Source: Clostridiales bacterium (GTDB taxonomy: Bacteria; Bacillota; Clostridia; Saccharofermentanales; Saccharofermentanaceae). Taken from it: DNA of 49,782 nt. The position numbers were made by a program, and so were the translations under genes. The notes below the pieces were generated by a model that worked only from the letters and a program-made list of their open reading frames with translations, had not been told where the DNA came from and searched no databases. The stretch is taken from the NCBI GenBank assembly GCA_017513085.1, contig JAFWDK010000031.1, positions 1 to 49,782 on the forward strand, in the 5' to 3' direction. Below, piece by piece: positions 1 through 20,926 of this stretch. The stretch's first letter is position 1, and the number at the start of each line of letters is the position of its first letter.

Positions 1-27
1 ACTACAAATATATATTGCTTCGGCGAC

Positions 28-69
28 GAGTACCAGCCCAGCCTCGGCTGGGCTGGTACTCCTTTTCTT
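28..69 (+). terminator. Rho-independent terminator of a gene outside the window
   Basis: Perfect 16-bp inverted repeat GAGTACCAGCCCAGCC-TC-GGCTGGGCTGGTACTC followed by CTTTTCTT. Confidence 0.7.
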
Positions 70-236
70 ATTGCAAGAGTAAACTCGACTTTTTCTGCTT
101 TATTCTGTTTTCAAAGTTCAGTGTTAATTTTTCAATCAACGCTTCAATTATTCATTACTTAATTATAAACGCTGTCCGTATATACGGACAGCGTTTTTTG
201 TACCATTGGTTTAGCAAATATGAAAGGAGAATTTGT

Positions 237-1178
237 ATGGAAAACGAGATGGTTTTATTTGAAACAAAGGACAAAGAGATCAAGTTGAACGTGTCTATTG
301 TCGATGATACTGTATGGCTTACTCAAGAACAAATGAGTTCACTTTTTGATACGGCCAGATCAACAATTGCATATCACATCAACCAGATTTTTAAAGAAGG
401 AGAACTGAACAGGGAGACTTCTGTCGAAATTTTCGACAGAAGTACAAATACAGCTTCTCGCCCGCCACAGTACTATAACCTTGATGTTATCATCTCCGTT
501 GGGTACAGAGTGAAATCTCAACGCGGTATTGAATTTCGCCAGTGGGCAAATTCAGTATTGAAGCAGTATATCATCAACGGATATGCCATAAATGAGAAGA
601 GACTTCTTGCCCTTCAGAAGACTGTGGAGATTCAGTCGAGGATGCTCGCGGATACGTTGTCTGTTGAACAGCAGGATGTACTTCGAACGGTGAGTCAATA
701 TACAGAAGCATTGTTGCTTCTTGATCAATATGATCATCATGATCTGGAAAAACCTGAGGGAACAAAGCCTTTATACAAACTCACATACAAGGACTGTCGA
801 GACATTATCTCACGCCTGGAAACGGAATACAAATCAGATGTATTTGGTGTTGAGAAGGAAGCCGGCAAGGTGGAGGGCATTCTTGGCGCAGTTTATCAGG
901 ATGTCTTTGGTGGAGAGGTTTATCCGTCTTTGGAAGAGAAGGCGGCCAATCTTTTATATTTCATCATAAAGGATCATCCCTTTAATGATGGATGCAAACG
1001 AATTGCCGCATCGCTGTTTTTAGAGTTTCTGAATCGAAACGGCTGTTTGTTCAAGAATGGTGAAAAGACGATAAGTGATGGAACTCTGGTTGCGATTACA
1101 CTCATGATAGCGGAATCTGATCCGTCAGATAAGGAGATCATGATCACACTGGTCATGAATCTGATGAATATTAGGTAA
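237..1178 (+). CDS. RhuM-family / Fic (death-on-curing) domain protein
   Basis: RBS AAGGAG before ATG at 237; RhuM motifs 'VWLTQEQMSSLF' and 'YYNLDVIISVGYRVKS'; Fic motif HPFNDGCKR. Confidence 0.9.
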   Translation: MENEMVLFETKDKEIKLNVSIVDDTVWLTQEQMSSLFDTARSTIAYHINQIFKEGELNRETSVEIFDRSTNTASRPPQYYNLDVIISVGYRVKSQRGIEFRQWANSVLKQYIINGYAINEKRLLALQKTVEIQSRMLADTLSVEQQDVLRTVSQYTEALLLLDQYDHHDLEKPEGTKPLYKLTYKDCRDIISRLETEYKSDVFGVEKEAGKVEGILGAVYQDVFGGEVYPSLEEKAANLLYFIIKDHPFNDGCKRIAASLFLEFLNRNGCLFKNGEKTISDGTLVAITLMIAESDPSDKEIMITLVMNLMNIR

Positions 1179-1183
1179 CAGAC

Positions 1184-1217
1184 AAAGACCGGCCAAGAAT
1201 TCCCTCAGCCGGTCTTT
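1184..1217. terminator. Bidirectional terminator (part of repeat copy 1)
   Basis: AAAGACCGGC...GCCGGTCTTT stem; homologous copy at 2663-2696 downstream of guaA. Confidence 0.7.
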
Positions 1218-1430
1218 ATAATTCATATGCAATTGTGTGACTCCCACGCCTTACGCGGGAGTGAATCTTTTTCGACAGCGCCTCTCAAGTAATTGAAAAG
1301 CATTTTGCAGGCGTTGCCTTTCCCCACGCAGGAGTAAAGTCTTTTCGACGTTGCCTCCGCAGGCGAAGCCGAGGACAGCAACAGAGAAAAGAACTTTACG
1401 ACTTATTCCCACTCGATCGTGCCTGTCGGC
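1184..1430 (-). repeat. Copy 1 of direct repeat: orphan guaA 3' end (PTGTIEWE*), bulged hairpin and terminator; att-like site
   Basis: Aligns with 2663-2830; 1328-1405 is identical to 2728-2805; carries an extra ~80-bp insert. Confidence 0.9.
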
Positions 1431-1535
1431 CTGTCCGGAATCCTCGTATGTGCTGGCGGAAGACCTGGCGGGAAGGTGAAGCAGGAACTCCTTGGAAGAG
1501 AACTGCAGATAAAATGCTGATATCTTTCTTTTTTC

Positions 1536-1964
1536 TCAGGCGTACTTATAGGGAGCCCAATCGACGTATCTATCGCTTTTCTCGATCTCGTCTTCGGAAT
1601 CAAACGGATTGATGTAAGACTCCACCCTCCAAAGACCCCATGGCCAATATTCGCGTATGGCAAGACGATTATGATAAGAAATCGATTGAAGCGATCTTGC
1701 TTTATTAACTTCGCGTGTGAGTATCGATTCCAGTTTGTCGATCGTCTTATAGAAGGATTTCTTTTGAAACTCTCCCACCGAAAACCTTACACGTCTCAAA
1801 GCAGAATCCACTTCAATATACACGTAGATATCCTGGCCCAGACGGCGGTCACAAGTGATCTTCTGAATGTGCAATCTGTCACAGAATTCCTTCATGTAAT
1901 CATATCGCTTCTTCTGTTCCGGGTTGCGTGCCGGATCACCCTCGAATACAAGATTCCAGGCCAT
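1536..1964 (-). CDS. Hypothetical protein (142 aa)
   Basis: Strong RBS GGAGGT upstream of ATG; protein-like composition; no recognised motif. Confidence 0.65.
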   Translation of the reverse strand: MAWNLVFEGDPARNPEQKKRYDYMKEFCDRLHIQKITCDRRLGQDIYVYIEVDSALRRVRFSVGEFQKKSFYKTIDKLESILTREVNKARSLQSISYHNRLAIREYWPWGLWRVESYINPFDSEDEIEKSDRYVDWAPYKYA

Positions 1965-2054
1965 ATCCTACCTCCAAAGTCGCGAGCCGATCACTTCACG
2001 ACTTACGTCCTTACTTTGCTTTCCTTGTCTCACAATTGTATTCTTCGAATTCTA

Positions 2055-2561
2055 TCAAGATTGTATCATGCTTGGCAGGATCATGTTGATGCGGTCCCAT
2101 TTTTCTTCTTTATAGGGAAAAGCACCGGGGGCTGTATTCCGTTCACTAAAGCCTGCTTTTTCATAGCATCTTTTCGCGCGCGGATTTGCGGAAAAGACAT
2201 TCAAGTGAACAGCGGCGGCTCCCGTCTTTTCAAAAGCATATTGCGCGGCAAGATGCAGCATCTCCTGCGCCGTGCCTTTCCCGCGCTGCTCGGGATCGAC
2301 GACGATGAATTTCAGCATGCCTTCCATCGTTTCCTCGTTCTTTCCGTAAAGGAAGAACCCGACGATCCGTCCGTCCTCGTTTTCCGCAGCAAAAGCACTG
2401 TCGCCTTCTTCTTTCTGTCTTTTCAGAAAATCCTCGAAATCTTTTCTTTCCATCGGGAACCCGATGCGGTTCGCGCTCCACATCGCATGCGTGCGCTCAT
2501 CCGTGATCCAGTTCCGGATCACCTCGAAATCCATATCTATATCAAATGCTCTCAGTTTCAA
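2055..2561 (-). CDS. GNAT family N-acetyltransferase
   Basis: 'VDPEQRGKG' acetyl-CoA motif A; 'N.RAKRCYEKAGF' motif B. Confidence 0.9.
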   Translation of the reverse strand: MKLRAFDIDMDFEVIRNWITDERTHAMWSANRIGFPMERKDFEDFLKRQKEEGDSAFAAENEDGRIVGFFLYGKNEETMEGMLKFIVVDPEQRGKGTAQEMLHLAAQYAFEKTGAAAVHLNVFSANPRAKRCYEKAGFSERNTAPGAFPYKEEKWDRINMILPSMIQS

Positions 2562-2662
2562 AACAAAAGCTTCCTTTCACGTATAATGAACTACATTTTA
2601 ACGCAAACTCCTATCCTTTTGCAGTAATTCATCTTCCGATTTCGTATCCTTGATAGGATAGA

Positions 2663-2830
2663 AAAGACCGGCCAAGGATTTCCTCAGCCAGTCTTTCTTC
2701 AGTCATATGCAATTGTGTGACTCCCAAGCAGGAGTAAAGTCTTTTCGACGTTGCCTCCGCAGGCGAAGCCGAGGACAGCAACAGAGAAAAGAACTTTACG
2801 ACTTACTCCCACTCAATCGTTCCTGTCGGC
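2663..2830 (-). repeat. Copy 2 of direct repeat: functional guaA 3' end, hairpin and terminator
   Basis: Aligns with 1184-1430. Confidence 0.9.
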
Positions 2831-3783
2831 TTTGGTGTCAGATCGTAGAGTACGCGGTTGATGCCCGGTACTTCGGTGATGATGCGGTTGACGATCTTGC
2901 CGAGGAGTTCGTACGGAATCTCTTCGATCGTTGCGGTCATGGCGTCGCGTGTGTTGACGGCGCGGATAACAACGAAGTTCTCAAAAGCTCTGACGTTGTT
3001 CTTTACACCTACGGACTTGTAATCCGGAACGAGTGTGAAGTACTGCCATACTTTTCCTTCGAGACCGGCGTTAGCGAATTCTTCACGGAGGATCGCGTCG
3101 GATTCACGTACCATCTCGAGACGGTCACGGGTGATTGCACCGGTGCAGCGCACGCCGAGACCCGGGCCCGGGAACGGCTGACGGTAGACCATGTTGGCCG
3201 GAAGACCGAGAGCTTCACCGACAACACGAACTTCGTCTTTGTAGAGGAATTTCAGAGGCTCAACGAGACCTTCAAAGTGGATATCGTCCGGGAGACCGCC
3301 TACGTTGTGGTGCGCTTTAACAGGACCGGACTCAAGGATATCCGGATAGATGGTACCCTGAGCGAGAAAGTCAACGTCCGGAAGCTTTCTGGCTTCTTCT
3401 TCGAATACACGGATGAACTCTTCGCCGATGATCTTTCTCTTTCTCTCCGGTTCTTCGACGCCCTCGAGCTTCGTCAGGAAGCGCTCTGTAGCATCTACAT
3501 AAACGAGAGTGGCATCCATCTGGTTTCTGAAAACTTCGATGACCTGTTCCGGTTCGCCTTTTCTCAGAAGACCATGATTAACGTGAACATTGATCAGGTT
3601 CTTGCCGATGGCTTTGATGAGAAGCGCGGCAACGACGGATGAATCGACACCACCGGACAGGGCCAGCAGGACTTTCTTGTCGCCGACCTGTGCTTTGACA
3701 GCGGCGATCTGCTCAGCGATAAAAGCATCGGCCAGTTCGCGGGTGGTAATTCTCTGCATGTCCTCAGGACGTTTGTTTTCCAT
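2803..3783 (-). CDS. guaA: GMP synthase, ATP-pyrophosphatase plus dimerisation domains only (no glutaminase domain)
   Basis: SGGVDS PP-loop, LAQGTIYPD, HHNVGGLP, QPFPGPGL, C-terminal KPTGTIEWE; RBS AAAGGAG before ATG at 3783; 326 aa. Confidence 0.93.
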   Translation of the reverse strand: MENKRPEDMQRITTRELADAFIAEQIAAVKAQVGDKKVLLALSGGVDSSVVAALLIKAIGKNLINVHVNHGLLRKGEPEQVIEVFRNQMDATLVYVDATERFLTKLEGVEEPERKRKIIGEEFIRVFEEEARKLPDVDFLAQGTIYPDILESGPVKAHHNVGGLPDDIHFEGLVEPLKFLYKDEVRVVGEALGLPANMVYRQPFPGPGLGVRCTGAITRDRLEMVRESDAILREEFANAGLEGKVWQYFTLVPDYKSVGVKNNVRAFENFVVIRAVNTRDAMTATIEEIPYELLGKIVNRIITEVPGINRVLYDLTPKPTGTIEWE

Positions 3784-3975
3784 AAGCGGTACTCCTTTGT
3801 ATCGTAATAAATTGAATACAACCATCATAACGCAAAAGCACTATCCCACGCAATGAAGAAATCATTCTTTCGATTCTGCGTTTTTTGTTCATGGAATGTT
3901 CTTTTTTCTGCCGAATTTGTTGCCGAATACAAAAGAGGTTGTCTGATATAATTAGAATAATTACGTTTCGGGGGA

Positions 3976-5085
3976 ATGTTTAAACGTATGCTGGAATTAA
4001 ATGAGAATATTAAGGAAACATTGCGTGCTAGAGAGATGACACAGAAGCAGCTGGCTTCATATCTGGGTATGTCCGAGTGCTCGCTTTCCCGTTATTTGAA
4101 GGGAACCAGAATGCCCAGACCGGAGGATGCGCAGAAGATTGCGAATTTTCTCGGACTTTATCCGAAGGAGTGGTTCGCCGGCTCGGATTCGGAAAACGAT
4201 GAGCAGGTCAATGATTCCAATACACTTCTTAAGCCGTCCCGGCAGGTGTGGGAGAAGCTCCGCACGTGGCCGGAAGCAATTGAAGCTTTGTCTACGACGC
4301 ATACTATTTCCGTACAGGATATCTGTCAGATCCTTCATGCTCCCAGAAGCTGGGTGAACCGCTTTGTGCTTCCGCATGTCGACAAGATCTATCTTCCTGA
4401 CGGTAAGCGTGCCGGAAAAGAAGTGAATACGAACTGGAAAGAAGTAGCAGCGATCCAATTGGGAAAGGACATGCAGGATTCGACCTGGTGTAATAAAGAG
4501 GACTTCGAGAATCTTATTATGGGAAGCATTATTTCCGTAACCAAGCAGACGAAGCTTATTCCGGCGGAACTTCTGGTTCAGGACAAGAAGGCTTTTGCCG
4601 AAGAATATAACTCTTATACAGAAAAGATGGAGGAGTTGGTAGGCTATCTTAAGCAGTATCCGGATTCTCCGATGGACAAATATTCGGAATTGGCGAATCT
4701 GAGAAAAATGCAGAAACAGTGTTATCGCCGTCAGCTCTCCAATGAAGGGCGGCAGATCCTGCGAAGCAATATGCCATCGGCGGCTACTCCGGATAAGACG
4801 AAGAGCATTCCGGTAAGACTTCCGTCTGTACCGATCGAGAAATGGATCGCTCCGGAGGATATGAAGGATTTTGCTGAACTCGAGGAGACCGGGCACAAGT
4901 ATTTCTTCAAAAACGGCTATGTACGGATCCTGTTGTCATTTGTTGAGGCCAATGGCAATGCTGTCAAGAAGATGTTCTACGTGGCGGATGCGGAAACTTT
5001 ATACCACAAATACGTCGAGGAGTATGTGCTCATCAGTGAAGAAGTCTGGCAGATGTATGCGATTCGTCTGATGTCCAGAAGATGA
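3976..5085 (+). CDS. XRE-family HTH protein with large unknown C-terminal region
   Basis: N-terminal 'MTQKQLASYLGMSECSLSRYLKG.RMP' HTH. Confidence 0.75.
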   Translation: MFKRMLELNENIKETLRAREMTQKQLASYLGMSECSLSRYLKGTRMPRPEDAQKIANFLGLYPKEWFAGSDSENDEQVNDSNTLLKPSRQVWEKLRTWPEAIEALSTTHTISVQDICQILHAPRSWVNRFVLPHVDKIYLPDGKRAGKEVNTNWKEVAAIQLGKDMQDSTWCNKEDFENLIMGSIISVTKQTKLIPAELLVQDKKAFAEEYNSYTEKMEELVGYLKQYPDSPMDKYSELANLRKMQKQCYRRQLSNEGRQILRSNMPSAATPDKTKSIPVRLPSVPIEKWIAPEDMKDFAELEETGHKYFFKNGYVRILLSFVEANGNAVKKMFYVADAETLYHKYVEEYVLISEEVWQMYAIRLMSRR

Positions 5086-20585: not shown

Positions 20586-20642
20586 TTTTCAATTCCTCCA
20601 TAAGCTCCCTATCAGCTGCGCCTTACTTTCGCTTTTGAGGCA

Positions 20643-20926
20643 ATAAAAAACGCCCCAACGTCCACTCTTCGGACATTGAGACGGCTATTTACCGCGGTAC
20701 CACTCAATTTGCGAAATCTTTCGCCACTTAATAGGTTCTATCAAACCCGTTGCCTTAACGCGGCCCTAACGTGTACAGTCTACTCAAGTTCGATCGTAAG
20801 ATCTCTCTTATTCGGTGTACCGGCTCGGAAGCGATAGTCATCTGGATCATCCCGGATACCGACTTTCAGCAGTATGTCGGCTCTCTGTGAGGCGAAATGG
20901 TCACGACCTTCTTCGTCATAGCTTTT
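20643..20926 (-). ncRNA. T-box riboswitch, probable Ile specifier (AUC at 20835-20833)
   Basis: GA motif GCUAUGA, AGAGAG and GCUGAAA loop motifs, T-box AAUUGAGUGGUACCGCG, terminator with U-run. Confidence 0.9.

Follow-up and report, generated by a model that had tools for sequence, protein, structure and literature searches.

Tandem accretion at the 3′ end of a gene, and the movement of integrase-less units by the integrase of a neighbor, are already known from cis-mobilizable elements (CIMEs) and from the pair GIsul2/CR2-sul2. According to the portions of the respective reports consulted here, CIMEs and site-specific accretion have been described in the ICESt1/ICESt3 family of Streptococcus thermophilus (PMC5704250), and experiments on GIsul2 showed that its integrase both cuts out and inserts the CR2-sul2 unit, which has no integrase, by recombining three att sites at guaA whose core is GAGTGGGA (PMC9376610). 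Tn5801-like islands, tyrosine-integrase elements of Firmicutes, likewise lie in the guaA 3′ end between short direct repeats of the gene end (PMC4844618). Here we describe a related situation in a Clostridiales bacterium of the Saccharofermentanaceae (assembly GCA_017513085.1, hereafter G000), a metagenome-derived genome of 36 contigs and 3.06 Mb. The window analyzed is the whole of its contig JAFWDK010000031.1 (C28; 49,782 nucleotides), which carries near its left end guaA2, a second GMP-synthase gene whose last 26 bases (the tail) are repeated behind it. Repeated integration has built at this point a tandem array in which each unit ends in its own copy of the tail, and a 1.4-kb unit of two genes is the one nearest to guaA2. 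We think it probable that this is an integrase-less accretion array resembling CIMEs and served by the integrases of integrative and mobilizable elements (IMEs).

The repeat search found a 108-nt direct repeat (1323–1430 and 2723–2830) with 96% identity and a start-to-start spacing of exactly 1400, with further matching pieces to its left (1184–1217/2663–2696 and 1223–1249/2703–2729). By pairwise alignment, copy A (1184–1430) equals copy B (2663–2830) plus ca. 73–80 extra nucleotides at about 1250–1322. There are only four mismatches in the 108-nt core (1327/2727, 1406/2806, 1415/2815 and 1421/2821), and 78 nt are common to both copies as one exact run (1328–1405 = 2728–2805). Homology ends at 1431/2831, and the last stretch in common is the 9-mer CCTGTCGGC (1422–1430 and 2822–2830). 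Copy B contains the functional tail B (2803–2828, minus strand), i.e., the last eight codons and the stop of guaA2, C-GACAGGAACGATTGAGTGGGAGTAA, a proposed attachment site that is attL-like; copy A contains the orphan tail A (1403–1428, minus strand), C-GACAGGCACGATCGAGTGGGAATAA, which is attR-like. The two tails are alike at 22 of 25 positions and the three differences (GAA/GAG, ATC/ATT and GGC/GGA) are all synonymous. The only open reading frames (ORFs) between the copies, both on the minus strand, code for a 168-aa GNAT acetyltransferase (2055–2561; PF00583 at 2e-17 and five further GNAT families, the NCBIfam matches being weak and far under their cut-offs) and for a 142-aa hypothetical protein, hyp142 (1536–1964), without a family in Pfam, NCBIfam or PHROGs and with an uninformative best score of 0.75 in the protein atlas. 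The initial annotation, made from the sequence alone, had described this duplication of a guaA-type tail and the DNA downstream, the 1400-bp distance between the tails, the two enclosed genes, the synonymous differences and the sharp end of homology after the 9-mer, and the repeat search, alignment, ORF and family scans agree with it in all of this. They also agree that the unit is integrase-less, no recombinase being found among its ORFs. The repeat is no product of chance: apart from itself, its sole counterpart in G000 is 33 nt of contig C12. The stretch 1184–2830 had no match in the plasmid collection. The distal junction (hyp142, tail A, untranslated region (UTR), RhuM) is contiguous in two related genomes (G016:C185 and G005:C167) and in a 2270-nt contig of sequencing run X9. 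The guaA2-proximal junction rests on the original assembly and a depth argument: the 78-nt exact repeat exceeds the unitig word size and interrupts the unitigs of X1 and X3 (two sequencing runs), the four flanking unitigs having equal, single-copy depth.

The gene at this site, which had been taken for guaA itself, is instead a paralogue. guaA2 (2803–3828, minus strand), the anchor of the array, codes for a 341-aa protein with the ATP-pyrophosphatase (PP-loop) and C-terminal dimerization domains of GMP synthase (PF00958 at 1e-36 and PP-loop families) and without the glutamine amidotransferase (GATase) domain. It scores 434 bits against TIGR00884 of NCBIfam (cut-off 338.75), aligns to NF000848 only at profile positions 196–512 of 512, and gave no glutamine amidotransferase family in the Pfam scan. 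The canonical guaA, of 523 aa, lies on another contig (C10:194199–195146) and is 56% identical to guaA2 over the shared part. guaA2 is kept at 95% amino acid identity or more in 17 of the 23 other genomes of the genus and at 73–74% in two; of the rest, two yield the canonical form only and two incomplete ones nothing at E ≤ 1e-100. Across 17 species the protein is 95–99% identical and the DNA only 79–89%. In G021, which is 98% complete, there are orphan guaA2 tails on G021:C25 (L059) at 3711 and about 7090, and the protein query detected no guaA2, which may have been lost there or be missing from the assembly.

Beyond tail A starts a second unit, as had been suggested when the cassette was called perhaps one unit of a longer array with RhuM-Fic as the next. 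Its first gene, in the orientation opposite to guaA2, codes for a 313-aa RhuM-Fic/Doc protein (237–1178, plus strand; PF13310 at 1.8e-20, PF02661 at 2e-8; a Doc-like toxin in PHROG). Three further orphan tails of like orientation lie on contig C12, at 7188, 17513 (degenerate) and 25148. We place the left end of the window next to C12 because of the synteny in three relatives: G016:C185 and G001:C128 pass straight from window position 154 into C12:226, and in G005:C167 RhuM-Fic is followed by C12:8010–10336. The break between the contigs falls inside an insertion specific to G000 (window 1–167 and C12:1–239), the edges of which carry the 14-nt sequence ATTACTTAATTATA (154–167, repeated at C12:226–239). 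Joined in this way, the array extends over ca. 28 kb with four orphan tails. Starting from guaA2, its order is tail B, GNAT and hyp142, tail A; then RhuM-Fic, NUDIX, DUF4143 ATPase, FMN reductase, lipoproteins and a tail; then a helix-turn-helix (HTH) protein, a lectin-like protein, an AraC/Cass2 regulator, an extracytoplasmic function sigma factor, a solute-binding protein and a tail; and finally a TetR regulator with an ABC transporter and a tail. No synteny between species was seen in the regions that follow the last known tail, and hence no native flank by which to set the far end of the array. The AraC-type regulator inside the array (C12:9341–10261, L046) has a Cass2 domain, named “integron-associated effector binding protein” in Pfam. 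Contigs of runs X1 and X3 extend 1602 nt past the first base of the window.

Similar arrays are found throughout the genus. We ran a 17-nt tail pattern over the 24 genomes, with the reversed pattern as control, and obtained 39 matches in 18 genomes (at least two matches in 12 of them) and none for the control. A search that allowed up to six mismatches and required an intact TGGGANTAA end, by which strongly decayed tails are missed, gave 49 tails in 31 stretches, 16 of them functional (on guaA2) and 33 orphan, and as many as five stood in one row. These counts leave out a minimum of two additional BLAST matches that resemble tails (G008:C22 near 5246 and G021:C25 near 7090). Among 118 sampled genomes of other genera of the order, none had three or more tails and four had two. 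In G006 guaA2 is only 74% identical and has a different tail sequence, and an orphan copy of this own tail lies 2.0 kb downstream. The 19 units with both tails on one contig measure 1.1–10.3 kb (median ca. 3 kb) and hold mostly one to three genes, which point both ways. Their cargo comprises several different GNATs, Fic/Doc, HipA, a SUKH immunity protein, AAA/STAND ATPases and a radical-SAM enzyme, besides lipoproteins, two-component systems and ABC transporters, and toxin-antitoxin and immunity genes seem to be over-represented in it. Genes of the HipA kinase toxin next to a small ORF, and a SUKH/SMI1 immunity protein, are found as cargo in L051 (G002:C18, 8681–10861) and L052 (G005:C167, 7000–8627).

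At the five freely variable third-codon positions, the orphans carry the same alleles as the functional tails in much the same proportions, and only 13 of their 825 bases depart from the coding consensus. Because this coding signature is retained, the orphans look like former functional tails, in line with the earlier suggestion that the orphan in the window once completed a different allele. PF00589 had a single match on the 27 tail-bearing contigs, a C-terminal integrase fragment at the end of G008:C25, ca. 850 nt from a tail; the resolvase family PF00239 had none on these contigs; and no recombinase family was present among 18 ORFs of C12 or 20 ORFs of small units that were scanned. The tyrosine recombinase that the initial annotation proposed to look for nearby is not on C28 or C12, where neither PF00589 nor PF07508 matched (PF00589 and PF00239 were scanned genus-wide, PF07508 in G000 only); the resident integrase lies at the canonical guaA, on C10.

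A comparison of the relatives, also proposed there, showed that the cargo downstream of guaA2 differs between species. The block formed by UTR, GNAT, hyp142, tail A and RhuM-Fic is 98.9% identical in G016 and 97.4–97.5% in G005, and guaA2 with its upstream neighbor is only 78.9% and 81.3% identical, respectively. In G002 the GNAT gene is found alone before another tail (94% nucleotide identity), in G005:C25 a truncated GNAT abuts a tail, and in G001:C128 the RhuM-Fic unit is directly behind a different tail and unit. The near-identity of the block points to recent exchange between species, and the other cases show that units also reassort. One ca. 8-kb unit lies directly behind guaA2 in both L040 (G005:C25, 1354–8747) and L053 (G017:C91, 582–7975), its equivalence being judged by ORF lengths (474, 236, 820 and 680 aa).

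Elements with an integrase do occupy the guaA2 tail elsewhere, in five species and in three metagenome contigs, as had been anticipated from the known targeting of guaA. The DNA behind 5 of the 16 functional tails (G019, G013, G009, G008 and G001) is 95–96% identical to an element at the canonical guaA of G000 (the C10 element), which encodes HTH-337 and a tyrosine integrase whose 368 aa comprise arm-binding, SAM-like and catalytic domains. When metagenomes were scanned with the junction of tail and flank, three contigs came up, with an IME directly behind the guaA2 tail in L100 and L098. The order in L100 is guaA2 tail, terminator and paired 9-mers, HTH protein, 370-aa integrase, NikA-like protein, DUF3847, MobA/MobL relaxase, DUF6040 and ABC transporter. 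Its families include PF00589, Arm-DNA-bind_4 and SAM_3, with MobA/MobL at 2e-81, and no type IV secretion family was seen among the 10 ORFs scanned. L100 and the C10 element are 91% identical over 5569 nt and their integrases 82% identical. By gene content, the helper represented by L100 and the C10 element is an IME, with a site-specific integrase and a relaxase and no conjugative pore.

The canonical guaA is a site of the same kind. All 15 canonical guaA ends examined terminate in ...TIELE followed by a terminator, 14 of them have behind them paired 8–9-nt direct repeats of four sequence families, and five have an integrase on the same contig. Our reading is that every housekeeping guaA in the genus is occupied by an integrase element (in G000 at C10:195149–206950, L048; the other loci are L083–L096). 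In G002 and G010 a sister IME has attL and attR made of the canonical guaA tail, and G010 has two such IMEs in tandem. There, the attR tail goes with the right end of the IME and the attL tail varies with the host, a pattern that maps the crossover of the sister IME beside the stop codon. The attR of the C10 IME was not found in the G000 assembly. The ends of the two paralogues are thus each served by a sister integrase, and accretion in tandem is the norm in this genus. A 134-aa ORF of the window (20600–20797, minus strand) that ends ...TIELE-stop also matches the canonical tail pattern, at 20780–20797. This is probably chance, with ca. 0.01 matches expected per genome by our own arithmetic and one match of the control pattern in 48 strand scans. 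The DNA after this ORF, ahead of an 835-aa gene, looks like what we take to be a putative T-box leader.

The two edges of the tails are sharp. Of the 33 orphan tails, 32 have a C at position -1, positions -2 to -4 being mixed. Different tails have unrelated sequences on their left, that in G005 being the truncated GNAT gene. G016 and G000 are 98% identical up to the exact left edge of a tail found only in G016, and in G008 a deletion stops precisely where the tail has its right edge. On the proposal that the 9-mer CCTGTCGGC is the crossover core, the data point two ways: the left edges of all orphans are sharp at this point, but the crossover of the sister IMEs maps to the other end, beside the stop codon. 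The wobble sites of AAG-CCG-ACA, (nearly) invariant in 18 functional ends, were considered as a sign of a crossover core and set aside as a weak signal, several other sites upstream being equally conserved. By inspection, no dyad symmetry was seen in the 26-nt tail.

The sequence after the stop codon sorts into several unrelated types, of which a, b and d are hairpin modules; many tails lack them. Type b is present behind 7 of the 49 tails, in G017 directly behind guaA2. In copy B (2663–2802, minus strand) it consists of an imperfect hairpin of ca. 65 nt directly after the stop, with the motif GTCGAAAAGACTTTACTCC, and a rho-independent terminator hairpin at 2663–2696; the RNA fold has -66.8 kcal/mol, against -49.2 ± 3.7 for shuffled sequences (z -4.7). 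In copy A (1184–1402, minus strand) the same hairpin is accompanied by a second module of ca. 73 nt (about 1250–1322) and the terminator is at 1184–1217 (z -4.8 for the DNA fold). The 73-nt module is an indel polymorphism: the 2270-nt contig of run X9 lacks exactly 1258–1330 (joint 1257→1331), and G005 and G016 lack the module too. Hairpin modules were found only behind tails (17/23 in relatives), with none elsewhere in G000, and in G002 four successive tails have type-a flanks of unequal length, from 35 to more than 70 nt. An Rfam scan of 1–4200 gave only a sub-threshold RsaE match elsewhere, and the post-tail hairpins match no family. A role of the modules as origin of transfer (oriT) or arm sites of IMEs was considered and dropped, as nothing resembling them is present in L100, L098, the C10 island or the IMEs of G002 and G010.

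The mechanism that we propose takes the last 26 bases of guaA2 as a site-specific attachment site. Integrases of IMEs would catalyze recombination between any two tails, and units without integrase could be excised as circles and re-inserted at the functional tail, or be carried together with an IME. The incoming unit would bring a tail that restores the protein end and the terminator, leaving guaA2 intact. In the window, the long repeat of the tail plus ca. 140 nt is proposed to result from an incoming unit that had the same type-b flank as the resident site. Mobilization in trans is suggested by the 97–99% identity of units across species and by the precedent of GIsul2 and CR2-sul2.

Several observations weigh against an array served by IME integrases. 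G000 has no integrase of the guaA2-specific type, the resident one being that at the canonical guaA, 82% identical to the integrase of L100. The unit has no remnant of IME genes and its left end is of type b, not the arm of the IMEs (type c), and has no similarity to IMEs, so that decay from an IME, by which CIMEs are defined, may not be its origin. The sharp left edges beside unrelated sequence contrast with a crossover of the sister IMEs at the opposite, stop-codon end, and the diversity of left junctions is not explained by the model. Neither the 1400-bp circle nor the empty site that the initial annotation had suggested to look for was seen in Logan contigs of four runs (contigs, not reads), i.e., no circle junction and no exact 1400-nt skip. 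Finally, most assemblies of the genus are in fragments, and contig ends cut through many arrays. A few weak joints did appear, 1306→2803 and 1282→2803 with five letters between (X8) and 1430→2929 (X3), with sides of 21–26 nt and low depth; they show at most a G001-type junction of a tail with the RhuM-Fic unit.

How does this locus compare with the systems described? It shares with GIsul2 and CR2-sul2, as far as the consulted portions of that report describe them, the GMP-synthase 3′ end, the presence of more than two tandem att sites and an integrase-less sub-unit bounded by them; the direct repeats derive here too from the end of a GMP-synthase gene, and the GIsul2 core GAGTGGGA is present in the guaA2 tail. 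It differs in that the gene is a GATase-less paralogue in Gram-positive-type Clostridia, there are up to five tails, 19 units and no ISCR (insertion sequence common region) element, and the integrase, where a genome has one, is carried by a separate IME. None of the 12 best plasmid matches listed for the integrase was from a Gram-negative host of GIsul2. With CIMEs, again following the consulted text, the units share repeats of a gene 3′ end of the attL/attR type, the lack of integration and transfer genes, and the tandem arrangement with each other and with functional elements of the same site. Such a functional element exists here as well (L100, L098 and 5 of 16 functional tails), and it was not found at guaA2 in G000. 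However, CIMEs are defined as decayed IMEs or integrative and conjugative elements, and the units described here carry no remnant of an integrase, a relaxase or an IME arm, though complete decay would leave none either. Where they meet the tail on the left, the joint is arbitrary and in part falls within truncated genes. Tn5801, in the consulted part of its report, is a single 25-kb conjugative element with 11-bp repeats, whereas here the repeats are of 26 nt, the units are small and integrase-less and the helper is a MobA/MobL-type IME. More generally, guaA-targeting islands of the GIsul2, Tn5801 or ATE-1 kind have their integrase inside the element; in the genus this holds for the type-c IME, but not for the 1.4-kb unit or the other units examined. 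Our literature search, which was not designed to exclude such a report, turned up no arrays at a GATase-less guaA paralogue.

The array had also been called integron-like. In function there is a likeness, a fixed insertion point by a conserved gene and a growing row of small units that each end in a conserved site, and in both cases how the cargo first joined the site is an open question. In structure the comparison fails: there is no IntI and no tyrosine recombinase on C28 or C12, and the C10 integrase scores 27.7 bits against the IntI model TIGR02249 (cut-off 265); there is no attC with palindromic R''-L''/L'-R' boxes, the site being a 26-nt coding tail; and the units, which lie in both orientations and have their own terminators, are not promoterless one-way cassettes read from Pc. 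We therefore do not regard the array as an integron; in our reading it probably works like CIMEs and GIsul2/CR2-sul2.

The sharp edges would also fit a gene-capture platform of its own kind, integron-like in function, in which the 26-nt tail, with or without hairpins, is a self-contained site cut by an enzyme other than the IME integrase, the candidates being a relaxase acting on an oriT-like hairpin and nick site and the HTH protein next to guaA2, and in which units are taken from arbitrary DNA. The C at position -1 followed by mixed bases, the unrelated sequences before the tails (at least one a truncated gene), the exact edges in G016/G000 and G008, the confinement of hairpin modules to tails and the small units without IME remnants all speak in its favor, as does its taxonomic restriction, with three or more tails in none of the 118 genomes from other genera and the HTH protein always beside guaA2. 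That protein, HTH-369 (3976–5085, plus strand; 369 aa, XRE type, PF01381), is divergent from guaA2; its family is confined to this genus (22 clusters, all at least 71% identical), and its 300-aa C-terminal part is of unknown fold. It was tried as a resident recombinase and found no support, the hhalign comparison with eight tyrosine integrases giving 4.4% probability; its AlphaFold model (pLDDT 51) is unusable for fold comparison, and it is unlike the HTH-337 of the island (BLASTP E 0.39). Against the capture platform stand the lack of an identified enzyme, HTH-369 being unlike tyrosine recombinases, the absence of the hairpin modules from IMEs and from many tails, the tail without visible dyad symmetry and a known integrase family that demonstrably uses the guaA2 tail. 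We consider it rather unlikely. We are equally hesitant about its more specific form, in which an uncultured gut and rumen genus of Clostridia would form its units, pile them up and swap them by cutting the 26-mer at its two sharp edges, through a relaxase or HTH-369 and not through the stop-codon-side crossover of IMEs, and hold it to be doubtful. If true, it would be a functional analogue of the integron anchored on a protein gene, with cassette genesis in action in the truncated genes fused to the site.

Ordinary segmental rearrangement is another improbable origin of the pattern. By this account RecA-dependent recombination between related strains, homologous or unequal, would have duplicated a stretch of 170–250 nt with the tail and the 3′ UTR or brought in the unit, and this particular unit would owe nothing to a site-specific recombinase. 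The repeat of the window, which goes on for ca. 140 nt past the stop and includes the 78-nt exact stretch, offers enough homology for it, and the unequal type-a flanks of G002 resemble conversion tracts. Most orphan tails, however, share only 26 nt with their neighbors, too little for RecA, and their edges are the same in 33 cases and at the same position in G006 despite its different tail sequence. Homologous recombination may have shaped this 170-nt repeat and cannot account for the 26-nt repeats elsewhere. An assembly artefact, be it a collapsed or mis-joined repeat or an empty site together with a free 1.4-kb circle, would be compatible with a metagenomic genome whose unitigs break in the repeat at equal depth but is very improbable, given the four differences and the 73-nt indel between the copies, the contiguous distal junction, which with the single-copy depths forces the proximal one, and the same architecture in 12 of the 24 genomes.

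What is unusual in the accretion array at guaA2 is its scale and regularity: throughout a genus of gut and rumen bacteria, up to five copies of a 26-nt coding tail bound many small mobile units. The anchor is unusual too, a second, amidotransferase-less GMP-synthase gene, while sister elements occupy the housekeeping guaA. Annotators of metagenome-assembled genomes can take a contig break behind guaA2 as the sign of a hypervariable hotspot of islands. The sharp and arbitrary left junctions make these arrays a tractable case of how cargo joins a recombination site, the question that is also posed by integron cassettes.

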